Source of the DNA: a virus
Lineage: Duplodnaviria; Heunggongvirae; Uroviricota; Caudoviricetes
IMG/VR virus record: IMGVR_UViG_2728369181_000010
DNA length: 36,947 bases
Strand: one strand, 5' to 3'
Position 1 is the stretch's first letter, and each line of letters begins with the position of its first letter. The notes below the pieces were generated by a model. That model was not told the origin of the DNA. It did not search any database and saw only the letters and a program-made list of their open reading frames with translations. The position numbers and the translations under genes are program-made. This document shows, piece by piece, positions 4,748 to 36,947 of this stretch.

Positions 4748-7700
4748 GCGTCGTATCCCCCCTGATCGCTGTAGTTACTCCTGGCTTTTGCCTTCAGCCT
4801 GCGTTCACGTTCATCAAGCTGGCGGGCCACCTCCCGCGCAATATCCTGCGCACTTTGTCCTGGCTGCGTCTGAATGATGATCTGCGTCGGTGCCTCAAGC
4901 CGTTGAACGGGCGGCACAGTGGCGGCAGGACTCACCATCGCTTCGCCGCCTTTCGCGGGAAGTGCCAAAGGATGTAACGGTGGAAGCTCTGCAGGTGCGG
5001 CAGCAACGCCCATCATTCCGGCAACAACGGCAGCCAGTGCAGCGGTATTTCTCCGGCTGGTCACATTTGCCGGGCCGTTAACAATTTCCGGCCNNNNNNN
5101 NNNNNNNNNNNNNNNNNNNNNNNNNNNNNNNNNNNNNNNNNNNNNNNNTTCACCGACGATGCCAAACTGCCCGCGCGGGATATAGCCGCCGCTGTCATAC
5201 ATCCCCGCAAAGCCATATCCCCATGACGGAAAACCACCCGATGGCATCATCACTTTACCGTCAGCATTCACCGTCGCAGGTTGCTGACGCGTCACGCTTT
5301 CCGGCAGTTTCGCCTTTGCAGCCTCTTTACTGACAATGCCGAGTTTATCCAGCAACCAGGAAACGCCGGATTTCAGGGAGTCCAGCGGATGCATGACCAT
5401 ATTCAGCCCTTCCGCCAGAGCCTCCCCGAATCGTCGCCCCATTGCCGCTGCGCTCTGCAGTTCGGCAGAGGTCGACTTAACGGGCGTCAGCAGATCAGTA
5501 AACCAGCCCCACAACGCCTGCACTTTGTCGCCAATCCACTGAAACACAGGCTTAAGTGGTTCGAATGCTGCACTGATGGGACCTGCCGCCGCTTTGAATC
5601 CTTCCACCACACCAGCGAGAAATGCGGTGATGGGTTGCCAGTATTTCCAGACAACCAGCGCCACGCCCGCCAGTGCAGTAACCACAAGACCTATCGGACT
5701 GAGCAGAGCACCTAACAGACCAGATATGGCATACAGGGCAACGCGCAGCATCGCCAGCGGACCGGATGCCAGTACTCGCAGCACCGCGCCTGCGGCAGCC
5801 AGTCCACCTCGTAGTGCTGCCAGTGGATTCATAAACATCACAGCAACAGCACGTAAACCGGATAATCCAGACCGCAACAGTGCAACCGGCACACCTGCTA
5901 CAGTTTTCAGGACATTCCCCGTCAGTGATGCCGTGCGGCGCAAAGACGACAACGGCGCAGTAAGTAAACCCGCTGCGTTGCCCGATGAAGCAAGCCCGCG
6001 TCGCAGCAGTGCCAGTGGAGCGCCAGCTAACCAGGACAACGCGCTGCTGGTTCGTGTTACTGCTGCCGTAACGGAAGGTAACGTTTTGATACCCAGCACA
6101 GAGAATCCCAGACGGATCACTGCCAGCGGCCCCAGCACTGCAGCCAGCGCCACCGCTAAGGTGCCGAGGCTTACGGTAACCGCAGCCACAACAGCCGCTA
6201 CTTTCATCAGTGTGCCTGTCAGTTCTGGGTTAGCTTCCACCCAGCGGCGCAACGCCCCCGTGATGCTTTTCACCGTGTACAGAATATCCATCAGCGGCTG
6301 GCGCAGCGTTTCGCCCAGGCTGCTGAAGGTGTTCTGCGCTCCGGTTTTGACCAGCAACCACTGAGCAGAAAGTGAGTCTTTGTTGATGTCGGATTCTTTC
6401 TGCATGGAACCGAGCGCATCATTGCCCGCTGTCAGTTTTAGCTGGCGCTGCAGTTCCGGCAGGTTGTTTGCCAGTTTCGCCGCGTCATCACCAAACTCTT
6501 TACCAAACAACATGGTCATGGCAGACAGACGCTTGTCCTGCGGCAGTGCGTTCACCTTCTCCAGCACACGCTGGATAGTTCCCATCGCATCCTTCGTCAT
6601 CTGCTTTTCAATCACTTCAGGATTGAGTTTCAGCAGATTCATCCCTTCAAAGAAACTCTTGCTTTGCATGGTGGCAATGGACAATTCACGCACCATCGCG
6701 TTTGCTGCACTGGCTGCAACCTCCGGCGCAGCGCCCAGTGTCAGAAAGGTGGAACCCAGTGCCGCCGCTTTACGATAATCCAGACGGTCAGCCACACCGC
6801 CCAGACGTTGCATCACATCAATGATGTCCGCCCCTTTCGACATGGCGTTATCATCCAGATAGTTCAGCGCATCGCCGAGCTGTTCAATATTGCGGGTAGG
6901 TATTTTGTAGAGCTGGGCGATTTTCCCCAGACTTTCTGACAGTTCATCCGCTGGCAGCTCAAAGGCTGTTGCCGCCTTTGCTGCCGTACTGGCGAAGGCC
7001 AGCAGGTCACGTTTCTGGTCTTCCCAGCTGTCGTCAGGGTTTGCGACGTTCATGCGCGCACCACCTTCAACCAGTGCAGCGAAGTCCACCGCACCGTTTT
7101 CCATCGGCAACTGTTCGCTGGCAGCCTTGATGGCATCCTGCATTTCATAAAAACGTGCAGTGCGGTTGCCATTATCGTCACGCAGACCATTGACCTGCTT
7201 TGCCACACCTTTCATGGCATCTTCCATGCTGGTATAGCTTTTTACTGCCGCCATCACTGGCGCACCCATTGCCAGCCCTGCAGCCGTGGTAGTGGCTCCG
7301 GCTCCTGCAATACGGTCGCGCACCTCCAGCGAACGGGCATAACTGGCACGCGCCGCATTCATCCTGCGCTGAGCTTCACCCAGTCGCTTCAGCCGCGCCT
7401 CCTGTTTCGACAATTCCTGGTTATAACGTGATGTTTCACGGGCTAAACGGGCAGTTGCTCCCGCATCATCTTTCGCAGAAATTCCCGCCCGGTACAGTTC
7501 TGCACGCACAAGCGCCGTTTGCTTCTGCAAATATTTTTGTTGTTCTTCCAGGCGTTGGACTGCCAGCGTTTGCCGACCTAAAGCCACAAGGTGCCGTTGT
7601 GATGGTTGTTCCATCGCCTCCAGCTCAGAGCTAAGCAAATTAGCCTTCTGTCTGGCATAGTTCAGCCTGTCGCCTAACTTCTTGTTATCGGCCTGCAGCT

Positions 7701-7872
7701 TGCGAAATTTTTCCAGGCTGTTACCCGCCTGATTGAGTTGCTTTAATGCGTCACGGGAGTTTCTGATTGCACCAGCCAGCTCTTTCGAACTGGCCTGTGC
7801 AGCACGGAATGGGCGGGTGAGTTTGTCAACCGCATTAAGAATGACCTGCAGGCGCAGGTTGTTATCACTCAT
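4744..7872 (-). CDS. T: Tail tape-measure protein T
   Basis: 1042-aa ORF, ATG at 7872; coiled-coil rich N-terminus and Ala/Gly/Leu-rich hydrophobic middle typical of tape-measure proteins; interrupted by N-run 5094-5148, so length is approximate. Confidence 0.85.
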   Translation of the reverse strand: MSDNNLRLQVILNAVDKLTRPFRAAQASSKELAGAIRNSRDALKQLNQAGNSLEKFRKLQADNKKLGDRLNYARQKANLLSSELEAMEQPSQRHLVALGRQTLAVQRLEEQQKYLQKQTALVRAELYRAGISAKDDAGATARLARETSRYNQELSKQEARLKRLGEAQRRMNAARASYARSLEVRDRIAGAGATTTAAGLAMGAPVMAAVKSYTSMEDAMKGVAKQVNGLRDDNGNRTARFYEMQDAIKAASEQLPMENGAVDFAALVEGGARMNVANPDDSWEDQKRDLLAFASTAAKAATAFELPADELSESLGKIAQLYKIPTRNIEQLGDALNYLDDNAMSKGADIIDVMQRLGGVADRLDYRKAAALGSTFLTLGAAPEVAASAANAMVRELSIATMQSKSFFEGMNLLKLNPEVIEKQMTKDAMGTIQRVLEKVNALPQDKRLSAMTMLFGKEFGDDAAKLANNLPELQRQLKLTAGNDALGSMQKESDINKDSLSAQWLLVKTGAQNTFSSLGETLRQPLMDILYTVKSITGALRRWVEANPELTGTLMKVAAVVAAVTVSLGTLAVALAAVLGPLAVIRLGFSVLGIKTLPSVTAAVTRTSSALSWLAGAPLALLRRGLASSGNAAGLLTAPLSSLRRTASLTGNVLKTVAGVPVALLRSGLSGLRAVAVMFMNPLAALRGGLAAAGAVLRVLASGPLAMLRVALYAISGLLGALLSPIGLVVTALAGVALVVWKYWQPITAFLAGVVEGFKAAAGPISAAFEPLKPVFQWIGDKVQALWGWFTDLLTPVKSTSAELQSAAAMGRRFGEALAEGLNMVMHPLDSLKSGVSWLLDKLGIVSKEAAKAKLPESVTRQQPATVNADGKVMMPSGGFPSWGYGFAGMYDSGGYIPRGQFGIVGEXXXXXXXXXXXXXXXXXXXPEIVNGPANVTSRRNTAALAAVVAGMMGVAAAPAELPPLHPLALPAKGGEAMVSPAATVPPVQRLEAPTQIIIQTQPGQSAQDIAREVARQLDERERRLKAKARSNYSDQGGYDA

Positions 7873-7998
7873 CGTTGGCCCCGCTTCTCTGAATCGCTTT
7901 ATACCGCCATTCCAGCACTTCGGTCAGCGGCATAACGTCAGTAACGGATGGCGGCCAGTGAAAAATGGTGGCGATATCTGCCACCAGATCGTCAACCG

Positions 7999-8301
7999 TC
8001 AGGCTGTCGGTAAACCGGCAAGCACCGACTTCTTCAACAAAAAAGTGACAACCTCAACCGACATGGCTGTGAGATCTGCCGGGTCCATCTCTGCGATTTC
8101 CTGTGCGGTCAGTGCCGGACTGGAGATGCGGGGGATCACGGTCATCATCGCGTTCACATCCATATCCATAATGGCCTGCAGGCGTGTGCCGCGCAGCGCA
8201 CCAGACTGCGGTTTACGCAACACAATTTCGGTAATTTCTGTTTTACCGCGCATGATGGGGGTATCCAGTTGAATGGTCTTTTCAGTCTGTTTATCGCTCA
8301 T
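7999..8301 (-). CDS. E: Tail assembly chaperone E (E+E' by programmed -1 frameshift)
   Basis: 100-aa ORF between FII and T; minus-strand TTTTTTG slippery heptamer at 8044-8038 near its 3' end, as in P2 E/E'. Confidence 0.8.
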   Translation of the reverse strand: MSDKQTEKTIQLDTPIMRGKTEITEIVLRKPQSGALRGTRLQAIMDMDVNAMMTVIPRISSPALTAQEIAEMDPADLTAMSVEVVTFLLKKSVLAGLPTA

Positions 8302-8355
8302 TTTGTTGTCCTGTAAATTAGGTTCTGGCGCGGCATTCCGCGCCGTTCAGATACA

Positions 8356-8871
8356 TCAGAGGCCGAGGGCGTTGCGGTGCGCTTCCATCAGGTCCACACC
8401 GTCCACAATTTCCACCATGTTGATAAGGTCCACTTCATAGAGCACCTCACCATTGATGGTCAGCTTCGCGTAGCTGTTGGTACTGGTCACTTTGGTGGTG
8501 TTGCTTTCGCCCGTCTTCCACTCGCCGGAATCCACTTCTTTGTGACGCCCACGCACCACAAGCTCCACGGCCTGCACTTCTCCGGTATCATCACGCTGGA
8601 TAGAGCCGGTAAAGCGCAACTGGATACCATCCACCGTGGCTTTGCCCATTTGCTTAAACAGCAGCAGCTCAGTACCACCAATGGAAAATTCTGTATCCAG
8701 TGCACTGTCATCCAGTCCCAAATCCACATCCACCGACCCCGGCATACCGCCGCCGCGATACTTCTCATATTTGCGGGTGAATTTCGGCAGCGTCAGCGAC
8801 TCAACGATCCCCTGCCAGTTGTTCCCGTCGTTAAACAAGTTCAGATGTTTTAATTTGCGTGGTAAAGCCAT
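8356..8871 (-). CDS. FII: Tail tube protein FII
   Basis: 171-aa ORF; P2 gpFII-like; position downstream of FI. Confidence 0.85.
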   Translation of the reverse strand: MALPRKLKHLNLFNDGNNWQGIVESLTLPKFTRKYEKYRGGGMPGSVDVDLGLDDSALDTEFSIGGTELLLFKQMGKATVDGIQLRFTGSIQRDDTGEVQAVELVVRGRHKEVDSGEWKTGESNTTKVTSTNSYAKLTINGEVLYEVDLINMVEIVDGVDLMEAHRNALGL

Positions 8872-10195: not shown

Positions 10196-10768
10196 TCAGG
10201 GGGATTCATTGCTCTTATTTGCCGGAAATTTTCTATAAATTGTGGAAACACCCACATCAAAAATCAGTGCAATACGCTGTCTTGATTCTCCGGCCTCGAG
10301 TAAACGTCCAATCTGTGCCCACTGTTCGGTGGTCAACTTAGGACGGCGTCCACCTACTCTGCCTTTAGCACGAGCTGCAGCCAGCCCCGCCCTGGTACGT
10401 TCAACTATCAGTTCGCGTTCCATTTCAGCCAGGGCACCCATGACATGAAAAAAGAAACGGCCCATTGGGGTACTGGTATCAATACTGTCAGTCAGGCTTC
10501 GGAAATTCACACCACGCTGGCGCAACTCTTCTATCAGCGTAACAAGATGCCGCATACTGCGCCCCAACCTGTCCAGCTTCCAGACAACCAGCGTGTCTCC
10601 TGCCAATAGTGTCCTGAGCAGTTTTTTAAGCCCCGGTCTGTCGGACTTAGTGCCACTGATTTTGTCCTCAAAAATCCGCTCACATCCCGCGCAGTTCAGC
10701 GCATTACGTTGCAAATCGGGGTTCTGGTCATTTGTTGACACGCGTACATAGCCAATAAGCATGATCAT
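10196..10768 (-). CDS. Serine-recombinase DNA invertase (Hin/Gin/Cin/Pin family)
   Basis: 190-aa ORF; N-terminus MLIGYVRVSTNDQNPDLQ with catalytic Ser motif and C-terminal HTH, closely resembling Gin/Hin; adjacent to the invertible tail-fibre segment. Confidence 0.9.
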   Translation of the reverse strand: MIMLIGYVRVSTNDQNPDLQRNALNCAGCERIFEDKISGTKSDRPGLKKLLRTLLAGDTLVVWKLDRLGRSMRHLVTLIEELRQRGVNFRSLTDSIDTSTPMGRFFFHVMGALAEMERELIVERTRAGLAAARAKGRVGGRRPKLTTEQWAQIGRLLEAGESRQRIALIFDVGVSTIYRKFPANKSNESP

Positions 10769-10789
10769 CTCCCTGAATAAAAATAGGGG

Positions 10790-11338
10790 ATGATGCCAGT
10801 TAGCCGTAATCGCTGCATTTTCTTAAACGTTGGTTTGGGAGAAGGTTCGGCATTACCCGTTGGGGTGCCTGTTCCGTGGCCTTCAGCCACTCCGCCAACA
10901 GGCTGGCTGAAATGCAATGGTGCGGCTTTTTCTGCTGAAGAATACCCGGAACTGGCAAAGGCTTACCCGACTAATAAATTGCCTGATTTACGCGGTGAAT
11001 TTATTCGTGGCTGGGATGACGGTCGCGGGATTGATTCTGGTCGTACTTTGCTTAATTGGCAGCCACACACAATTTTGGACCATGCACACTATATGGAATT
11101 ATGGACAGGGGACGGACTCGCCGCAGGAAGTGCACGGGAAGGAGTAAATCCAGGAATACTGGCTACATACGGTGACGGGGGAATAGTTAAAACAGACGAA
11201 CCCGGTCTTAAGGTGCCTTCCTCACTACGAGCTATTAGCTCCCGTAGTGTAAAACGTTTTGGTGAAATTAGTGGAAAGGTAGGTACAGAAACTCGTCCTC
11301 GTAACATCGCTTTTAATTATATTGTGAGGGCCGCATGA
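10790..11338 (+). other. Alternative tail-fibre C-terminal cassette (promoterless; expressed only after inversion)
   Basis: ORF without its own plausible N-terminus; begins at the crossover site (encodes ...GLGEG...); tail-fibre tip-like sequence; followed by a cognate assembly chaperone. Confidence 0.7.
10830..10844. repeat. Inversion crossover site (left inverted repeat) of tail-fibre segment
   Basis: ttggtttgggagaag; exact inverted copy at 12798-12812; flanking sequence resembles hix/gix sites. Confidence 0.7.
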
Positions 11339-11940
11339 TGAATAAAGTTATCTTAAATAACGAACTCATTGCCATAAAAGCGGGAGACATTATCATTTAT
11401 AATTATGATGGTGAAACGCGGGAATATATTTCTACATCAACTGAATATCTCGCTGTCGGCGTCGGTATACCGGCATGTTCCTGTTTGGATGCACCAGGTA
11501 CACATAAAGCTGGTTATGCAATCTGTCGCTCTGTAGATTTAAATTCATGGGAATATGTGCCAGACCATCGCGGTGAAGTTGTCTATAGTACCGAAACGGG
11601 AGATACCAAAGAAATCACAGTTCCGGGTGATTACCCTGAAAATACAACCACTATCGCCCCATTAACGCCATATGATAAATGGGATGGTGAGAAATGGGTG
11701 ACCGATACTGAGGCACAGCATAGCGCCGCAGTAGACGCGGCAGAAGCACAGCGTCAGTCACTGATTGATGCTGCAATGGCTTCCATCAGTCTGATTCAGC
11801 TGAAATTACAGGCCGGACGGAAGTTGATGCAGGCAGAAACAACCCGGCTTAACGCTGTGCTGGATTACATTGACGCGGTGACGGCAACAAATACCAGTAC
11901 AGCGCCGGATGTCATCTGGCCTGAACTGCCGGAGGCGTAG
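11335..11940 (+). CDS. Tail-fibre assembly chaperone (cognate of alternative fibre tip)
   Basis: 201-aa ORF; C-terminus ...DVIWPELPEA typical of tail-fibre assembly proteins; convergent 29-bp overlap with the other chaperone gene. Confidence 0.8.
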   Translation: MMNKVILNNELIAIKAGDIIIYNYDGETREYISTSTEYLAVGVGIPACSCLDAPGTHKAGYAICRSVDLNSWEYVPDHRGEVVYSTETGDTKEITVPGDYPENTTTIAPLTPYDKWDGEKWVTDTEAQHSAAVDAAEAQRQSLIDAAMASISLIQLKLQAGRKLMQAETTRLNAVLDYIDAVTATNTSTAPDVIWPELPEA

Positions 11941-12355
11941 GCCATTCAATATCTGGCGCACCGGAAGTATCGACCAGTTCCAGTGCGTCCAGATAATCCA
12001 GCCACGAATTATATTGCGCCAGTTCCTCGCCTTTCAGACGACCAATAGCAGCTTTGCCAGGCCACTGATGGGTATTGATGTAGGTATTGACTTCAGAAAC
12101 CAAAGATATTTTTTTCATTTCAGCCGTCAACACCTCATCCTCTTTTGAAGGGGGTGGGGAATTAATCCATACTGGCCGTCCTGAACTATCAGCGCCAATT
12201 TCTTTCCCTTCTGGATGCAGACCAAGAAATTGCTCATATGTTTCTCTGGTAATTTCAATAACATCATCAGGAAGCGTTCCCGCATCCTCATATTCTGGAA
12301 ACAATTCTTGCAGATAAAAACTTTTACTTCCGGGTGAAAAGAATACTGAGTTCAT
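11912..12355 (-). CDS. G: Tail-fibre assembly chaperone G (cognate of currently expressed fibre tip)
   Basis: 147-aa ORF; C-terminus ...DIEWPTPPA; immediately downstream of H. Confidence 0.8.
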   Translation of the reverse strand: MNSVFFSPGSKSFYLQELFPEYEDAGTLPDDVIEITRETYEQFLGLHPEGKEIGADSSGRPVWINSPPPSKEDEVLTAEMKKISLVSEVNTYINTHQWPGKAAIGRLKGEELAQYNSWLDYLDALELVDTSGAPDIEWPTPPAVQAR

Positions 12356-12357
12356 TA

Positions 12358-13911
12358 TTACCGTCCAATGATTAACGCTGAGACGCTGGTATCTGAAGGA
12401 AAGGCTGCATTCAGTGGTTTGTCGACTTTGAACACAATCGTATTATTCCCCCTGACAGCGGCAAAAGAACAAACCGCAGTCGCGTATGAACCTGTAATAT
12501 TACTGGATACACCACCATAAGCTGTTGTTGATACCAGAGGGATAACGCCCAGTACCTTATTAGGAAATACAAAGGGCAATGTGGCTGTGGCAATATAAGA
12601 CTTATTAGAACCTGTGATGGCATAAGCATTATCAGTCATTCCATTCATCGCCACTGGGCCGCTTATACTTACAGTAACCATCTGTATGATTAGCCCGTCA
12701 GGTTGACGAATCACAAAATTTCCATTGCCACCAGTAACCGTCCAGAAAGACATATCAGGGATTTGGTTTTCCCCGTTGCCCACATTCCGTTTTGCCGCTT
12801 CTCCCAAACCAAGGTATATGAGAAGACCAGCTACATCCTTTCCACTCAAATTAGTCAGCGTATTGTCCAGCGGTTGTTTACCTGCCAGCGCATTAAGCAT
12901 TGTCGTGGCAAAGTTCGGGTCATTCCCCAGCGCTGCCGCCAGTTCGTTCAGTGTATCCAGTGCCGCAGGTGCAGAACCCACCATTGCCGCAATTGCCGAT
13001 TTCACAAAAGCCGTGGTGGCAATCTGTGTATTGTTGACCGACTGTGCCGCAGTAGGTGCGGTTGGCGTTCCGATGAGTGCCGGACTCGACAGCGGCGCTT
13101 TCAGTGCCAGCGCATTGTTAATGGTGGTACTGAATTTCGGATCATTGTTAATGGCTGCGGCTATTTCTTTCAGCGTGTCCAGCGTGGCTGGCGCACCATT
13201 AATAAGAGCCGTCAGAGCCGCCTGAACAAACGNNNNNNNNNNNNNNNNNNNNNNNNNNNNNNNNNNNNNNNNNNNNNNNNNNNNGGTGGTCGCAATCTGC
13301 GTGGTGTTATTCCCTGCGGCTGGCGTTGGCGCTTTGGGTGTCCCGGTAAACGTCGGACTTTCTTTGAGTGCATACTGTGAATGCGGGTCCGGTGCGGCAA
13401 GATGTTTTGCCATCTGATCATCCGCGTACACCTTCAGCTCCAGTGCCTTGTCATCCACATACTTGCGGGTTGCCAGCACTACGGCAGGGTCGATTTTCAG
13501 GGTGATATTGTCCGTGCTGCTGGTAATCAGCACCATGCGCACGGTCTGAGTGCGCCCGCTACCTTCAGCCAGTTGCGGCTTATAGCTTTCCGGGCAGTTG
13601 CCCACGGCAATCAATGCCCCGGACTCATCAAACAAGCCCACTTCACGTATCCACCAACCGCCCTCGTTTTCAGGGATCACCTGTTCGGCAATAATCTGGC
13701 TGCTGTTCTGCGGGTCGATATAGAGCATATTCAGCGCAGCCCGGCGTTTCTCATTTACCAGTGCAGTCTGCTTTGAGTCTGGCGTTGGCAATACTCCGCC
13801 GCCATCGCCGACCGCCATATGGGTAATTTTTAGCGGCACACCGAGCGCGGCGGCGCTGGCAAGTTTCGCCGCGCCAATATCCGTCAGCAGGGTATAAAAT
13901 TTTGTGCTCAT
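12358..13911 (-). CDS. H: Tail fibre protein H (constant N-terminal part plus invertible C-terminal tip)
   Basis: 517-aa ORF, ATG at 13911; Ala/Thr-rich repeats typical of fibre shafts; crossover site at 12798-12812 lies in-frame (YLGLGEAAK); interrupted by N-run 13233-13284. Confidence 0.85.
   Translation of the reverse strand: MSTKFYTLLTDIGAAKLASAAALGVPLKITHMAVGDGGGVLPTPDSKQTALVNEKRRAALNMLYIDPQNSSQIIAEQVIPENEGGWWIREVGLFDESGALIAVGNCPESYKPQLAEGSGRTQTVRMVLITSSTDNITLKIDPAVVLATRKYVDDKALELKVYADDQMAKHLAAPDPHSQYALKESPTFTGTPKAPTPAAGNNTTQIATTXXXXXXXXXXXXXXXXXXFVQAALTALINGAPATLDTLKEIAAAINNDPKFSTTINNALALKAPLSSPALIGTPTAPTAAQSVNNTQIATTAFVKSAIAAMVGSAPAALDTLNELAAALGNDPNFATTMLNALAGKQPLDNTLTNLSGKDVAGLLIYLGLGEAAKRNVGNGENQIPDMSFWTVTGGNGNFVIRQPDGLIIQMVTVSISGPVAMNGMTDNAYAITGSNKSYIATATLPFVFPNKVLGVIPLVSTTAYGGVSSNITGSYATAVCSFAAVRGNNTIVFKVDKPLNAAFPSDTSVSALIIGR
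12798..12812. repeat. Inversion crossover site (right inverted repeat) inside gene H
   Basis: cttctcccaaaccaa = reverse complement of 10830-10844. Confidence 0.7.
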
Positions 13912-16438: not shown

Positions 16439-17245
16439 ATGAGTGTTATGAATCCAATAAGTTCTAATATATTTAATGCTGAATTTTTAAACACCCCGGC
16501 AGCGGCACTTGCCGCATGGATTTCCATTATTGGAGCTGTTATAACTTTGGTGACGATAGTTATAAGAGCACTATTCAAATATAGAAAATCTCATGATGTA
16601 ATTTTGAAAAAATCAGGAATACCTGCGTTTATATTAAATTTCTTTCTTATAAAAATATCATTAAAAAGGCTGCCTACTATCACATGGGCTGAAAAATCAT
16701 TCACGGTTCTATTTTCGCTTCTTTTTTTGTGTGCAATTTATCTTTTTGGTCCAGTTTTCATCCAAGCCATTAGAACCCCACCAAATAGCACATTGCTTTA
16801 TTGGATAAAGTCCGGTGAATCATTTTATATGTCAAAAAAAATGGCGACTGCAGCTACAATATTAACCACTCCTGATTGGGAAATATCAAAGGATGATTGC
16901 GAAGAGTCATCCTCTGCCAGTACAGAGAAGTACAAATCATTAACTATCGAACATAAAGAAATTCTTTGTAAACTACTAACCACTGATGAAGGGAATGCTT
17001 ACATTGATGAAGAAGTCAAGAATTTCGTTAAAGACAAATTTTTTATCTATTCCTTTGCCCCAACAACTATATTTATTCTATTATGGATTTCTTTGGGTTT
17101 TATACTGACCATTCACTATTCTAAAAAAGTTAGGAAATATATTCTAACTGAACAAAAAAATGCAATTCATTGGGCATATGGTGAATTCAAGACAGAAGGA
17201 ATCTATTCAATATATCAAGAGTTAGAACATAAGACTCGCCATTAA
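16439..17245 (+). CDS. Hypothetical three-TM membrane protein (cargo in the V-S moron slot)
   Basis: 268-aa ORF, ATG at 16439 with AGGTGG 4 nt upstream; strongly AT-rich versus flanking phage genes; three hydrophobic segments and an acidic soluble region; opposite strand to all neighbouring tail genes. Confidence 0.6.
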   Translation: MSVMNPISSNIFNAEFLNTPAAALAAWISIIGAVITLVTIVIRALFKYRKSHDVILKKSGIPAFILNFFLIKISLKRLPTITWAEKSFTVLFSLLFLCAIYLFGPVFIQAIRTPPNSTLLYWIKSGESFYMSKKMATAATILTTPDWEISKDDCEESSSASTEKYKSLTIEHKEILCKLLTTDEGNAYIDEEVKNFVKDKFFIYSFAPTTIFILLWISLGFILTIHYSKKVRKYILTEQKNAIHWAYGEFKTEGIYSIYQELEHKTRH

Positions 17246-18560: not shown

Positions 18561-18621
18561 AACCAGCANNNNNNNNNNNNNNNNNNNNNNNNNNNNNNNN
18601 NNNNNNNNNNNNNNNNNCGGT

Positions 18622-23180: not shown

Positions 23181-24903
23181 ATGAACACCACACTGACACC
23201 CGCAGATCTCGATCCCCGTCGGCAGGCCATGCTGCTGTACTTTCAGGGATACCGCGTAGCCCGCATTGCTGAAATGCTGGGCGAGAAAGTTGCAACCGTT
23301 CACAGCTGGAAAAAACGCGACAAGTGGGGTGACTATGGGCCGCTGGATCAGATGCAGCTCACCACCGCCGCACGCTACTGCCAGCTCATTATGAAGGAGC
23401 ACAAAGAAGGGAAAGATTTCAAAGAGATTGACCTGCTGGCGCGCCAGTCTGAGCGCCACGCGCGGATCGGCAAGTTTAACAATGGCGGCAACGAAGCCGA
23501 CTTAAACCCTAACGTCGCCAACCGCAATAAAGGCCCACGCCGTCAGCCGGAAAAGAATGTTTTCACCGATGAGCAGATTGAGAAGCTGGAAGAAATCTTC
23601 CATTCCTCCATGTTCAACTACCAGCGCCACTGGTGGGAAGCCGGAAAAACCAACCGCATCCGCAACCTGCTGAAGTCTCGCCAGATCGGCGCGACATTTT
23701 ACTTTGCCCGTGAAGCCCTGATTGACGCCCTGCAGACCGGGCGTAACCAGATTTTCCTTTCTGCCAGCAAGGCTCAGGCCCACGTCTTTAAGCAGTACAT
23801 CATCGACTTCGCCAAAGAAGTGGAGGTGGAGCTGAAAGGCGATCCGATGGTGCTTCCTAACGGGGCCACGCTTTACTTCCTCGGCACCAATGCCCGCACG
23901 GCCCAGAGTTATCACGGCAACCTGTATCTGGATGAATATTTCTGGATACCGAAATTTCAGGAGCTACGCAAAGTGGCTTCCGGTATGGCTATTCACAAGA
24001 AATGGCGGCAGACCTATTTTTCCACACCATCCAGTCTGACCCACAGTGCTTATCCGTTCTGGTCCGGTGCACTGTTCAACCGTGGGCGCAACAAAGCTGA
24101 CAAGGTGGACATCGACCTGTCCCACAGCAATCTGGCCCCCGGCCTGCTGTGCGCAGACGGGCAATACCGCCAGATAGTCACCGTGGAAGATGCGGTGCGC
24201 GGCGGCTGTAACCTGTTCGACCTCGACCAGTTGCGCATGGAGTACAGCCCGGACGAATACCAGAACCTGCTGATGTGTGAGTTCGTGGACGATCTCGCGT
24301 CCGTGTTCCCGCTCAGCGAGCTGCAGGCGTGCATGGTGGACAGCTGGGAAGTCTGGACCGACTTTCATGCACTGGCGCTGCGCCCGTTTGGCTGGCGCGA
24401 AGTGTGGATCGGTTATGACCCGGCAAAAGGTACGCAGAACGGCGACAGTGCCGGATGCGTGGTGGTGGCTCCGCCAGCCGTGCCGGGGGGTAAGTTNNNN
24501 NNNNNNNNNNNNNNNNNNNNNNNNNNNNNNNNNNNNNNNNNNNNNNNNNNNNNNNNNNNNNNNNNNNNNNNNNNNNNNNNNNNNNNNNAACGTGAAAGCG
24601 TTCTTTCCTGCCGTCCGGGAGTTTGTCTATAACCCCAATGTTAAAAATGCTCTGGTACTCAAGGCCTACGACATTATCAGCCACCGCCGTCTGGAGTTTG
24701 ACGCCGGGCACACCGACATTGCGCAGTCATTCATGGCAATCCGTCGCGCCACCACCGCCAGCGGCAACCGCCCGACCTATGAAGCCAGCCGCAGCGAAGA
24801 AGCCAGCCATGCCGATCTGGCCTGGGCAACAATGCACGCACTGTTTAACGAACCACTGCAGGGCGAGTCCGCCAATACCAGTAATATTGTGGAGATTTTT
24901 TGA
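23181..24903 (+). CDS. P: Terminase large (ATPase) subunit P
   Basis: ATG at 23181; divergent from O as in P2; reading frame interrupted by N-run 24497-24588 and resumes in the ORF ending with TGA at 24901-24903. Confidence 0.85.
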
Positions 24904-25967: not shown

Positions 25968-27653
25968 TCACTCGGGAATACCCTTCCTTTCAGGGTTAAC
26001 CAACCAGTGCTTTATATTCCCAATAAAATCCCAAACATCACCTTCAGATGGCTTCACATATGATTCATCATTAGGATCATCCCCCATCTTCTCGAAAATA
26101 CTTGTTAACCAAGTATTCTTTCCTCGACCTATTTCAAGATTTTGCAACCAAGACTCGATCTCGCCCGTTGGAACGACAAAAACCCCATAATCTGAAAGGG
26201 ATTTAAAAAACTCAGAGCAGGCGGTTTTATCTGAACCCGATAACAAGGAGAGGCCCCCATCTGTCTTCATATTTTTATTCGTATTTTTGAAGGCTTGAAA
26301 AAGCTTTTGTCTTTCCAAACCTAAAGTTTCATGCTTCATTTCTGGAAAAAAAGCTCCAAGCATTGGTTTTTTCCATACAACTCCTCCCTCCTTCAATATA
26401 TCGATATCTACCACTCCAACGCAGGGAATACCTAGCTCACGAAGGGGTTTTACTATATCCCAAACAGTTTGTTTGTTTTGAGCATTCAAAAACAGGCATC
26501 CCTCAATACCCCGAGGATCTCCAGCAGCCAATAAGCGCTCATTAATCTCTTGATAAAATGCCCTATCTGCATCCGCTTCAGTAACGACAACGTAATTATA
26601 AAACAATGCGTTTAGCACACCAATAGATCTTAATAACGGATTTCTCATGAGCGGCGTCAATTGTTCCTTTGTTAGTAATCTAGACGTACCAGATTTACCA
26701 TCAAAAGTAAGCCTAACTATATTCAATGGCACTTTACCTTGAACACAACCCATTAAAAAATTAGCGCTATGCGTTGAAATAAACACATTTTTATTACTAT
26801 GAGCACTAATCCTAGATATTTCCTTTCCTAACTTTGAGCATAAGGATGGATGTAAAAAAGCTTCCGGCTCATCAATTAGAGTCACCTTTGGTGAGCCAAC
26901 TATCAGCGAAATCATCATCCCAACAAAAGCATTAACACCATCGCTAGCCTCTGTAATCAATGACGCTTTTGAATGAAAAAGCACTGACTTTTCATCCCAA
27001 CCTCTTTCTTCTTGTTCAGTCTCAGGAGCGCGCTCAGAAAGACGAATTCTAAGATAACCTATATTTGTTGGATCAATAACAAGATACTTCCCGAAAGCAT
27101 CAAAAACGATATCTCTTAGCTCCATCCTTGCTTTATTATTTTTAAAAAGAAATGAAAGGTTATTCGTAGGTTCTCCTTGTAAATCGGATGAACCTTGACT
27201 TGAAGTTAAGGAAAGTCGACTTCTACCATCCAACCTTAGAGTCAGCAACGAGTAATATTGATATAGATGCTCCCGATTTAATTCATTGGGTTGCTGGAAT
27301 TCTCTTAACATTCCATCCAAATACACTAGAATCCTAGATATTCCTTCACCACGGAGGTTTAGCCTAGATAAAACAACATGCCCCGCATGATTTTCATCCT
27401 GGTTTGGCTCAACTTGTAAAGATTCAATTTCCTTTTTTGCTTCATCCTCAGAAAGTGGTTTGATTAATATCTGTTTTATTACTTCTCCCTGCGCTGCATT
27501 TCGGGTTGTCAGTTGATTTTCTATATCGATTAAAGCTCTAGATTTACCACTATTATTCGGCCCCACAAAAATTGTCAATGGAGTCAAGTCAACCGATAAT
27601 GAAGATTTAGATGTTGGATTACTTCCTGAATTAAAAATCAATTTATCTAACAT
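25968..27653 (-). CDS. OLD-family ABC-ATPase / TOPRIM nuclease (candidate single-gene anti-phage defence)
   Basis: 561 aa from ATG at 27653 with AAGGAGGT upstream; Walker A GPNNSGKS, Walker B VTLIDEPEAFLHP, H-loop FISTHS, then TOPRIM-like VVVTEADAD and VGVVDIDIL (E...DxD); AT-rich. Confidence 0.75.
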   Translation of the reverse strand: MLDKLIFNSGSNPTSKSSLSVDLTPLTIFVGPNNSGKSRALIDIENQLTTRNAAQGEVIKQILIKPLSEDEAKKEIESLQVEPNQDENHAGHVVLSRLNLRGEGISRILVYLDGMLREFQQPNELNREHLYQYYSLLTLRLDGRSRLSLTSSQGSSDLQGEPTNNLSFLFKNNKARMELRDIVFDAFGKYLVIDPTNIGYLRIRLSERAPETEQEERGWDEKSVLFHSKASLITEASDGVNAFVGMMISLIVGSPKVTLIDEPEAFLHPSLCSKLGKEISRISAHSNKNVFISTHSANFLMGCVQGKVPLNIVRLTFDGKSGTSRLLTKEQLTPLMRNPLLRSIGVLNALFYNYVVVTEADADRAFYQEINERLLAAGDPRGIEGCLFLNAQNKQTVWDIVKPLRELGIPCVGVVDIDILKEGGVVWKKPMLGAFFPEMKHETLGLERQKLFQAFKNTNKNMKTDGGLSLLSGSDKTACSEFFKSLSDYGVFVVPTGEIESWLQNLEIGRGKNTWLTSIFEKMGDDPNDESYVKPSEGDVWDFIGNIKHWLVNPERKGIPE

Positions 27654-27804
27654 ATAACCTCCTTTCACATAAGATATCCCTAAGTTTTGAACTAATGGGA
27701 CTCAATAATTTGCATTATTCTTATAGCATTTTACTCAACAAAGTGAAGTTAATTGTACTTCATTCTTATACCTCCCAGCGCGCGCTCGTATCCCCGCCAC
27801 GCCT

Positions 27805-27976: not shown

Positions 27977-28654
27977 CTAGAACGTGACAGCCTTGTCAAA
28001 GCCAGAAATAATTGTATAAGAAATAGACGAGTTATCAGCCTTGTTCACTTTGAACTTGGCACCTTTGTAAGCGATAACGTCACTTCCCTTAGAATCTACA
28101 GAAAAATCTGTTGTAAATGCTGCACGAGCCATATCGTTTGCAAATTCACGATAGGTGAACTTCATTACACCGCCTGCATTTCCATTGTATTCGATAGTCT
28201 TAACCAATGAGTTACTAACTCGACACAGCCCATCAGGAACACGTTTGATAGAAATTTCTGATGCAGTATAAGAAGTACCATTTGGCGGTGATATCTCATT
28301 TTTTGCAGCATCGTAACTAACATAATCAACATAGTTACCGATTTGCCCATAGAGATTTTTTAACGCAACAGCTTGAGGGTTATGATAATTGCGGTAAATT
28401 CCATTCCCCTCACTGCAATATGTACCAGCAGCGATAGAAGACAATGCACCATTAGCCGCACCAAGTTCTAGTACGTCCGTTTTAAATCCAGTAGCAGATG
28501 TGATAATGGGATCGCCCATGTAGGCGGTAGCACTTTGCCCAATAGCAGGCTTCACCACTTCAATAGCAGTGATATTTCGGTTAGAAGCATGTGGCACGCA
28601 ACCAGTTAGGATTACAGCAAGAGATATTGGTAACGCTACATTATTAATTTTCAT
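27977..28654 (-). CDS. Hypothetical lipoprotein (cargo; possible superinfection-exclusion factor)
   Basis: 225 aa from ATG at 28654; signal peptide MKINNVALPISLAVILTG|C with lipobox; AT-rich; own terminator. Confidence 0.65.
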   Translation of the reverse strand: MKINNVALPISLAVILTGCVPHASNRNITAIEVVKPAIGQSATAYMGDPIITSATGFKTDVLELGAANGALSSIAAGTYCSEGNGIYRNYHNPQAVALKNLYGQIGNYVDYVSYDAAKNEISPPNGTSYTASEISIKRVPDGLCRVSNSLVKTIEYNGNAGGVMKFTYREFANDMARAAFTTDFSVDSKGSDVIAYKGAKFKVNKADNSSISYTIISGFDKAVTF

Positions 28655-28767
28655 TTTTAGCCTATTATTCTTTTCTTGACAAAAAACAAGGCGATATCTG
28701 ATTGACATCGCCTCTCACTCATATGTAACCCTTTTTGATTAGTAAAAACAAGCGTCTATTGACAAAA

Positions 28768-29258: not shown

Positions 29259-29401
29259 TATATAATAATCTTACTGATGTAAAACGTTTTTTTACNNNNN
29301 NNNNNNNNNNNNNNNNNNNNNNNNNNNNNNNNNNNNNNNNNNNNGTTCATCAGCCTGATATGCCTGGTATTATTAAGAGCACGAATTGTTAACCCGCGTA
29401 A

Positions 29402-35706: not shown

Positions 35707-35894
35707 CTTTTGCTTTTATATCTGCGTCTAAAATAAAAATGAGCCGCAGGTTAACCGCAAAAGTTACATGCTCACATAGCAAAAAGAATAGCCAACTTCA
35801 TTATGGCTTCAGTGAGATGTATGGTCGTAGGATTTCATACATTGACACTGGTTATATATACAGTAAAAATGCTCTCTACTGGAGGGCATTTTTT

Positions 35895-36947
35895 ATGGCA
35901 GTACGAAAACTCACCACAGGGAAATGGCTTTGCGAATGTTACCCCGCCGGACGAAGTGGGCGTCGTGTGCGTAAACAATTCGCCACCAAAGGCGAAGCTC
36001 TGGCTTTTGAGCGTCACACGATGGAAGAAACCGAATCAAAGCCCTGGCTGGGCGAATCAGTGGATCGTCGAACCCTGAAAGACGTGGTTGAGCTATGGTT
36101 CAAACTACATGGTAAATCACTGACAGCTGGGCAGCATGTCTATGACAAATTGCTGCTGATGGTTGACGCTCTGGGCAATCCCCTTGCAACTGATCTAACC
36201 TCTAAAATGTTTGCCCACTATCGAGATAAACGCCTGACAGGTGAGATCTACTTCAGCGAGAAATGGAAGAAAGGAGCAAGCCCGGTCACCATCAACCTGG
36301 AGCAAAGCTATCTAAGTAGTGTTTTTAGCGAACTATCCCGCCTGGGCGAATGGTCGTATCCGAACCCACTGGAGAACATGCGAAAATTCACCATCGCAGA
36401 AAAAGAGATGGCATGGCTTACCCATGAGCAGATTGTTGAATTACTGGCTGATTGCAAACGTCAGGACCCAATTCTGGCACTGGTAGTTAAGATATGCTTA
36501 AGCACAGGCGCACGCTGGCGAGAAGCCGTAAATCTTACTCGTTCACAGGTGACCAAATACCGAATTACCTTTGTAAGAACGAAGGGGAAGAAAAACAGAA
36601 GCATCCCTATCAGTAAAGAGCTTTACGAAGAGATCATGGCGCTTAATGGGTTCAATTTCTTCACAGACTGCTATTTTCAATTTTTATCCGTGATGGAAAA
36701 AACGTCTATCGTGCTCCCTCGCGGTCAACTCACACACGTTCTGCGCCATACGTTTGCGGCGCACTTCATGATGTCGGGTGGAAACATTCTGGCCTTACAA
36801 AAAATTCTCGGACACCACGATATAAAAATGACTATGCGTTACGCACATCTGGCACCGGATCATCTGGAAACGGCGCTCCGTTTCAATCCTCTGGCAACGC
36901 TGCCAAGTGGCGACAAAGTGGCGGCAGCGGTTGGCATTACCCCGTAA
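35895..36947 (+). CDS. int: Tyrosine integrase (P2/186 family)
   Basis: 350 aa from ATG at 35895 with GGAGGG upstream; C-terminal catalytic region (R...HxxR...Y: LRHTFAAHF...MRYAHL); stop at the last base of the window. Confidence 0.9.
   Translation: MAVRKLTTGKWLCECYPAGRSGRRVRKQFATKGEALAFERHTMEETESKPWLGESVDRRTLKDVVELWFKLHGKSLTAGQHVYDKLLLMVDALGNPLATDLTSKMFAHYRDKRLTGEIYFSEKWKKGASPVTINLEQSYLSSVFSELSRLGEWSYPNPLENMRKFTIAEKEMAWLTHEQIVELLADCKRQDPILALVVKICLSTGARWREAVNLTRSQVTKYRITFVRTKGKKNRSIPISKELYEEIMALNGFNFFTDCYFQFLSVMEKTSIVLPRGQLTHVLRHTFAAHFMMSGGNILALQKILGHHDIKMTMRYAHLAPDHLETALRFNPLATLPSGDKVAAAVGITP

Follow-up and report, generated by a model that had tools for sequence, protein, structure and literature searches.

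We describe here a probable invertible tail-fibre module in a stretch of 36,947 nucleotides (IMG/VR virus record IMGVR_UViG_2728369181_000010; the whole stretch is called the window below). An earlier note on this DNA had read about 2 kb of it, at the 3' end of the tail-fibre gene H, as an invertible segment with a Hin/Gin-type invertase, built as in the Mu G and P1 C segments. It is highly probable, in our judgement, that this module is a two-state, invertase-driven tail-fibre switch of the Mu G/P1 C/e14 P type, and its carrier is a complete P2/186-like (Peduoviridae) Escherichia coli prophage. The likeness to Mu G and P1 C is supported by the family of the invertase, by recombination sites of the gix/cix type and by an in-frame exchange of fibre tips. 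Descriptions of such tail-fibre switches in Mu, P1 and e14 go back to the 1980s, and the segment is apparently an ordinary, intact example of this well-known phage DNA switch. Its parts are listed in Table 1.

The 15-mer TTGGTTTGGGAGAAG is present in two exact copies in the window, at 10830-10844 (+) and 12798-12812 (−), which are the inverted repeats reported in the earlier note. Two matches to it were found in 0 of 100 dinucleotide-preserving shuffles of the window, and a chance origin of the repeat was rejected. A repeat finder lengthens the arms to 27 nt, 10818-10844 and 12798-12824, which are 1953 nt apart and 85% complementary, and alignment to the annotated Mu and P1 records shows that each 15-mer is the core and inner half-site of a 26-bp site laid out as 12-2-12. 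The repeats are thus exact at 15 bp, the functional sites being 26 bp rather than 15. Both sites, which are in inverted orientation and share an identical TT core, can be aligned with gix and cix; these site comparisons are based on the Mu, P1 and K-12 records. Central dinucleotides were called with a script that, when run on the Mu and P1 records, recovers the annotated G-segment boundaries and the P1 crossover points exactly, and crossover in the window is therefore assigned to TT 10830-31 and AA 12811-12. The left core falls in a Val codon of a short leader and the right core in the Leu codon preceding GLGE of H. H reads ...IYLGLGEAAKRN and the left open reading frame (ORF) reads ...NVGLGEGSALP; the repeats lie in frame, and the junction peptides quoted previously are correct.

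A looser site consensus, allowing at most three mismatches, returns two sites only in the whole window, and for this reason we read the module as a two-state switch and not as a multi-site system like that of one prophage of enteropathogenic E. coli (EPEC). The latter, a P2-like prophage locus with three inverted repeats and four variants (Goldberg et al. 2014, PMC4272514), provides the precedent for a shufflon-like alternative with more than two tips, as does Min of p15B; three sites are also seen at locus L008 and three to four in the IMG/VR contigs L036 and L073. For the window such an arrangement is extremely improbable, given the count of two sites and the presence of just two tip-plus-chaperone cassettes between them, and extra internal sites were rejected on that count.

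Table 1. Parts of the tail-fibre module, with positions in the window
Feature	Positions	Strand	Remarks
DNA invertase, Pin/Cin/Gin family small serine recombinase	10196-10762	−	188 aa; Pfam, PHROG and Gin alignment
Putative region homologous to recombinational enhancer	10673-10744	−	nt 19-90 of the invertase gene; homology to the P1 record
14-codon leader ORF MMPVSRNRCIFLNV	10790-10831	+	starts outside the segment, in frame through the left site
Left (invertase-side) 26-bp crossover site	10818-10843		TTTTCTTAAACG-TT-GGTTTGGGAGAA; core dinucleotide 10830-10831
Invertible segment	10832-12810		1979 bp between central dinucleotides; in-silico inversion keeps H in frame; equivalent interval inverted between genomes L002 and L003
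Tip B cassette, not fused to H at present	10832-11338	+	collar-domain receptor-binding C-terminus, 168 aa
Chaperone for tip B (TfaE-like tail fibre assembly protein)	11335-11940	+	201 aa; Pfam Caudo_TAP 1.6e-29
Chaperone for tip A (P2 G/TfaP-like tail fibre assembly protein)	11912-12355	−	147 aa; Pfam Caudo_TAP 1e-27
Tip A, variable H C-terminus in present orientation	12358-12810	−	150 aa; weak gp53-like C-terminal domain
Right (H-side) 26-bp crossover site	12799-12824		minus strand TTCTCATATACC-TT-GGTTTGGGAGAA; core 12811-12812
Constant N-terminal part of tail fibre protein H	12813-13911	−	Pfam Phage_tail_fib N-terminal 1e-64

The approximately 2 kb bracketed by the repeats contain the ORFs attributed to them in the earlier note, all five being as stated and with fitting domains, and these form two opposed tip-plus-chaperone cassettes that converge at 11912-11940. 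In the native state the complete H ORF (12358-13911, −) encodes 517 aa. In-silico inversion of 10832-12810 gives an uninterrupted 535-aa H' with a collar-domain tip, and the junction ...IYL-GLGE is the same in native and flipped H; inversion would thus exchange the receptor-binding tip while keeping H in frame, as the earlier note had proposed. Tip A matches Gp53-like_C at 0.0015, which is under the Pfam cut-off, and is 37% identical to an EPEC gp53-like protein. Tip B is recognised by Pfam Collar (1.4e-15) and PHROG 523 tail collar fiber (2e-75) and is 59.6% identical to e14 StfE. Its chaperone is 90% identical to e14 TfaE and carries the RefSeq name tfaE in a 99.8% identical relative of the window, while chaperone G is 54% identical to e14 TfaP and 57% to its EPEC homologue. 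In a set of at least 120 IMG/VR contigs bearing the H-side junction, the junction type of tip A (AAKRNVGN) occurs at least 8 times, and among the matches listed the tip fused to H is of the collar type, as tip B, in at least about 50 and gp53-like in at least about 40.

Two further features of this region were seen. An 18-nt inverted repeat (83%; 11859-11876 and 11985-12002) stands on either side of the convergent chaperone ends; it was rejected as a structural element, being the C-terminal LDY(I/L)DA motif that the two Caudo_TAP proteins, read from opposite strands, have in common. The constant part of H contains a masked run of N (13233-13284), one of five such runs of 49-92 nt in the window (the others at 5094-5148, 18569-18617, 24497-24588 and 29296-29344). 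It coincides with a 51-nt (17-codon) difference in H length, 517 aa here and 500 aa in the 99.8% identical copy of strain N1420, so the masked stretch may hide one extra fibre-shaft repeat unit.

The enzyme that would act on these sites is encoded just outside the segment. The claim of a Gin-like serine invertase at this place is borne out by an alignment to the Gin crystal structures 3UJ3/4M6F across 184 residues (E = 1e-91) and by the presence of the catalytic serine, with the qualification that the nearest relative is e14 PinE and not Gin or Hin: identity is 82% to e14 PinE, 76% to P1 Cin and 71% to Mu Gin. Pfam assigns Resolvase (2e-52, residues 5-137) and HTH_7 (1e-15, 140-183) domains, and PHROG 125 'DNA invertase' is matched at 5e-100; gamma-delta resolvase gives a weaker match than the Gin structures (4e-34), and the Hin DNA-binding domain is matched at E = 7e-9. 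Catalytic Ser9 lies in the YVRVST motif, MLIGYVRVSTNDQ, which is the same in Gin, Cin and PinE, and WKLDRLGRS, with the DRLGRS arginines, is likewise identical in these three. Domain layout, catalytic motifs, sequence closeness and site architecture all fit membership in the Din family (Gin/Cin/Pin/Hin). The gene points away from the segment, its start lying 68 bp from the crossover. Its start is most likely 10762, judging by the Gin alignment and the RefSeq annotation of a 99.8% identical copy; an alternative ATG at 10768 would give an ORF of 190 aa (10196-10768).

Whether the enzyme would need Fis and an enhancer can be addressed from two sides. The invertase has the wild-type residues His106 and Met114, at which the crystallised Gin mutants differ (their chains carry Val114), and from the established behaviour of such mutants one would expect an ordinary enzyme that depends on Fis and an enhancer. 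In the P1 record the 'enhancer of Cin-mediated C-segment inversion' is placed at nt 19-90 of cin, and the stretch of the window in the same register is 76% identical to it, equal to the value between gin and cin. A test of third codon positions over window, gin, cin and pinE (n = 24 codons) was mixed, with no clear excess identity. As the stretch is conserved coding sequence and the third-position test is uninformative, we grade a recombinational enhancer in the 5' portion of this gene as plausible only.

Comparison with known systems places the module closest to the P segment of e14 (stfP-tfaP/tfaE-stfE/pinE), to which it is homologous. The 15-nt inner arm TTGGTTTGGGAGAAG is identical at both e14 sites, and the pinE-side 26-mer of e14 differs from the invertase-side site of the window by 1 base. 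In both, the constant part of the fibre gene leads to a site, then to a tip with its chaperone, to a second chaperone and tip in inverted orientation, to the second site and last to the invertase gene, which reads away. A 29-nt convergent overlap of the chaperone ends and a 14-codon leader before the invertase-side site are also common to the two. They differ in that e14 is a defective lambdoid element in which a 209-aa remnant (stfP) is left of the fibre gene, whereas the window has a full P2-type H in a complete prophage, and active tip A of the window has no detectable similarity to the StfP C-terminus. Mu G follows the same logic (Sc, site, Sv-U/U'-Sv', site, invertase outside and reading away), with 67 bp from gin start to crossover where the window has 68 bp. 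Mu gix, TTATCCAAAACC-TC-GGTTTACAGGAA, shares the 12-2-12 layout, the core dinucleotide being TC in gix and TT in the window and the inner half GGTTTACAGGAA in Mu and GGTTTGGGAGAA in the window; the Mu G segment measures 3 kb against 2 kb here, and tips and chaperones are only distantly related. P1 cixL, CAATCCTAAACC-TT-GGTTTAAGAGAA, has the central TT and the flanking ACC-TT-GGTTT core as in the window, and the P1 record annotates crossover between the two T's. The C segment of P1 is 4.2 kb long, and cin, unlike the invertase of the window, points toward it, which is why cixL overlaps the cin 3' end. The Hin/H segment system of Salmonella employs an invertase of the same family, and differs in that Hin flips a promoter and lies within its segment, whereas the module in the window swaps a coding C-terminus with its invertase outside. 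Inversion by Hin involves Fis and an enhancer, and Gin, Cin and Pin cross-complement it.

Closest in phage family and in position, between the sheath gene and H, are the P2-like loci of EPEC E2348/69. At the two-variant locus (NC_011601:2977580-2979467, our L007), the invertase-side 26-mer is identical to that of the window and the segment measures 1.9 kb, and both orientations were found by sequencing (Goldberg et al. 2014, Genome Med, PMC4272514, Table S1, Figs S3-S5), 93% of a clonal culture being in the forward state and the inverted repeat being printed as TTGTTTGGGAGAAG. This locus differs from the window in being a remnant from which the H constant part has been lost, and the invertase DNAs of the two are just 74% identical. 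In the surrounding interval (NC_011601 2974500-2983500) a truncated tyrosine integrase fragment abuts the outer site in place of the constant part of H, and the switch therefore keeps flipping although a full fibre can no longer be built. The same study reports that both orientations of e14 coexist in a clonal K-12 culture (51% forward; Goldberg et al. 2014, PMC4272514), and inversion at TTGGTTTGGGAGAAGG in e14 by PinE, PinQ and PinR has been confirmed (Kirigo et al. 2025).

The earlier note had named two observations that would speak against a switch, namely repeats not conserved in related phages and, together with an inactive invertase, the occurrence of one orientation only in deep sequencing. 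Conservation of the sites is seen in pro483 (Peduovirus), Cartapus (Elveevirus), 500465-1 (Wadgaonvirus) and Klebsiella phage KP12, the segments of which measure 1.5 to 2.0 kb and the cassettes of which differ, and in most of the viral contigs listed. As to orientation, complete E. coli genomes were queried with the native 3.1-kb region and with its in-silico flipped version, at 80% coverage or more in one piece, and the matching genomes were native in 22 cases and flipped in 33. Both orientations thus occur among relatives, and experimentally so at the identical invertase-side site of EPEC. On neither of the two grounds is the switch refuted. At least 43 viral contigs have exactly two sites, and among them the same cassette pairs are found in both states: the pair with AAKRDVGT active and GSALPVGV silent was encountered at least 3 times and the reverse at least 4 times. 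In four of the IMG/VR contigs listed (L019, L027, L079 and L088) the H-side outer half-site is present at both segment ends, as if the constant part of H stood on both flanks; these, and the contigs with three to four sites referred to above, may be assembly chimeras of mixed-orientation populations or real multi-site switches.

A direct comparison of two states is offered by a near-clonal pair of genomes, NZ_CP149553 (L002) and NZ_CP149565 (L003), from two pig isolates of one site. Their chromosomes are of equal length and the 6-kb flanks on each side are identical, with the segment inverted between the two central dinucleotides. After allowing for inversion, 16 single-nucleotide polymorphisms (SNPs) remain inside the segment (6731-8665 in both), a point against the switch reading. 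They are confined to the half with tip A and chaperone G and to the 3' end of chaperone E, the 15-kb loci being otherwise identical. No exact donor paralog for the L003 SNPs was found, and comparison of the alleles with those of relatives gave a mixed pattern; the L003 version of the segment is unique within the E. coli collection. The SNPs could be a polishing artefact or the product of gene conversion.

Several further points count against an active switch in the window. The three genomes that match it at 99.7% identity or more all show the native state, a flipped copy of exactly this prophage was not found in complete E. coli genomes, and the best flipped full-length match reaches only 96.7%. 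A search for flipped copies with an allele-specific 41-mer across the H-side junction gave no matches in metagenome and viral contigs, and the cassette pair of the window (AAKRNVGN/GSALPVGV) occurs in at least 4 viral contigs, all in the state of the window. The native and flipped relatives could in part reflect old fixed states and not ongoing switching; the enhancer is proposed on homology alone and lies inside a coding region; and different receptor specificities of the two tips are a presumption. One could thus conceive of a frozen switch, the architecture of which is inherited and inoperative because the invertase is unexpressed or inactive or a site impaired, with tip A fixed and tip B a decaying relic. 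The uniform orientation of the three near-identical genomes and of the viral contigs with this cassette pair fits such a view, as does the H-side outer half-site, of which the allele found here, TTCTCATATACC, is less common than TTCTCGCATACC. Yet the invertase ORF is intact with its catalytic residues present, the ORFs of tip B and of its chaperone are likewise intact and match their families strongly, the invertase-side site has the same sequence as the proven active one of EPEC, and the central dinucleotides match, as inversion requires. The seven observations of one orientation are moreover compatible with a biased equilibrium, compare 90-93% forward in EPEC. Taken together, we hold a frozen switch to be very unlikely and retain the two-state switch, and we infer, by analogy with the systems above, that this exact prophage inverts its segment, that it does so in dependence on Fis and that the two tips differ in receptor specificity.

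On the two-state reading the switch would work as follows. Transcription of H comes from outside the segment, on the minus strand, and the constant part of the gene ends at the 26-bp site that encodes ...L-GLGE. The Pin-type serine invertase would bind both inverted sites, 2 kb apart, and, by analogy with Gin, Cin and Hin, would form a synapse with a Fis-bound enhancer within the 5' end of the gene that encodes it. Cuts staggered by 2 bp at the central TT/AA, subunit rotation and religation would then invert 10832-12810. In the present state H ends in tip A (gp53-like), followed by chaperone G, and in the flipped state it would end in tip B (collar domain, StfE-like), followed by the TfaE-like chaperone. 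With two tip states, a lysogen population would release two virion types of different receptor specificity.

The invertase side of the segment merits separate consideration. The leader has its own ATG and continues as an ORF (10790-11338, +) into tip B. Among relatives, about 48 of 52 invertase-side sites conserve the leader ATGATGCC (pattern MMPxxxxxxIFxNV) together with its ATG and open frame, those of EPEC and of e14, in which its counterpart is the N-terminus of stfE/stfE2, among them; RefSeq calls the product of leader and cassette a free-standing 'phage tail protein' or 'hypothetical protein'. The alternative tip had been described as promoterless. In keeping with this, a consensus scan returned no sigma-70-like promoter just upstream of the leader on the plus strand; the term is nevertheless doubtful, because the conserved leader ATG reads into the invertase-side cassette. 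In e14, StfE2, a small chimeric protein which consists of the leader and a gp53-like tip and is made by inversion at the same repeat, is reported to block T2 adsorption, and this leader-tip counterpart is reported to be expressed (Kirigo et al. 2025).

We therefore weighed a dual-output switch, in which the leader joined to either tip gives the lysogen a free-standing receptor-binding fragment (182 aa, leader and collar, at present; 164 aa, leader and gp53-like tip, once flipped) that could block adsorption of other phages. The leader start outside the segment (ATG 10790), the frame open through the left site, the conservation of both across relatives, the T2 block reported for StfE2 and the architecture that the flipped product of the window shares with StfE2 all speak for it. 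Against it, next to the missing promoter match, the spacing of the Shine-Dalgarno sequence is poor, since a purine-rich stretch abuts the leader ATG; conservation of the leader may equally come from an invertase promoter or regulatory region on the other strand; and stfE is annotated as a pseudogene in K-12. Sequence comparison found no similarity of tip A to e14 StfP or StfE2 beyond the leader, and the T2-blocking function is therefore not transferable by homology. On balance we regard the dual-output switch as rather unlikely, and its consequence, that the invertase-side slot is not silent and the same switch also toggles a phase-variable block on the adsorption of other phages, as improbable.

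The surroundings of the module are those of an ordinary P2-type prophage. In the annotation of the 99.8% relative the late gene order is P2-type (V W J I H G, then FI FII E T U D), and Pfam matches in the window comprise Phage_GPD, tape measure, Phage_base_V, Phage_GPA, Phage_CI_repr and integrase. To one side of the module are sheath, tube, tape measure and gpD; on the other, after the constant part of H, come the P2-type baseplate genes I, J, W and V, followed by lysis, capsid, gpA, CI and integrase. The backbone is 96% identical across 82% of its length to Peduoviridae-type phages, and phage relatives are classified as Peduovirus, Elveevirus and Wadgaonvirus. A host gene for an Asp-Al_Ex/TrkA_C permease (935-2620, +) marks the left edge of the prophage and an integrase ORF (35739-36947, +) reaches the right end of the window, so that practically the entire prophage, about 33 kb, is covered.

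Two places in this backbone hold genes of the cargo kind. The classical P2 old/tin cargo hotspot, which stands between gpA and the genes for packaging and capsid, contains a gene for an OLD-like ATPase/TOPRIM nuclease (25968-27668, −; Pfam AAA_15/AAA_21/OLD-like_TOPRIM, PADLOC 'Old' 1.5e-20), adjoined by a 243-aa ORF (27977-28708, −) with no Pfam or PADLOC match. Just past baseplate gene V, on the opposite strand, is an ORF with DUF6216 (16439-17245, +) and no PADLOC match; the related prophage of L002 has a TIR-domain protein at this position, which therefore appears as a second cargo hotspot.

The switch itself is already known, and near-identical sequence is already present in RefSeq. Tail-fibre inversion in P2-like prophages has been detected experimentally (PMC4272514), and such switches are noted in surveys of P2-like hotspots (bioRxiv 10.1101/2024.10.15.618418). 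RefSeq-style annotation breaks the system into unrelated 'phage tail protein' and 'hypothetical protein' coding sequences, and assemblies capture an arbitrary orientation of the segment, which makes its recognition of practical use for host-range prediction and prophage typing. For the phage, two virion types from one lysogen population would amount to bet-hedging on host range. The switch would matter more if the leader ORF gave lysogens a switchable anti-adsorption protein; if this were true, the e14 StfE2/PinQ mechanism reported in 2025 would extend from a cryptic remnant to intact, inducible P2-like prophages.

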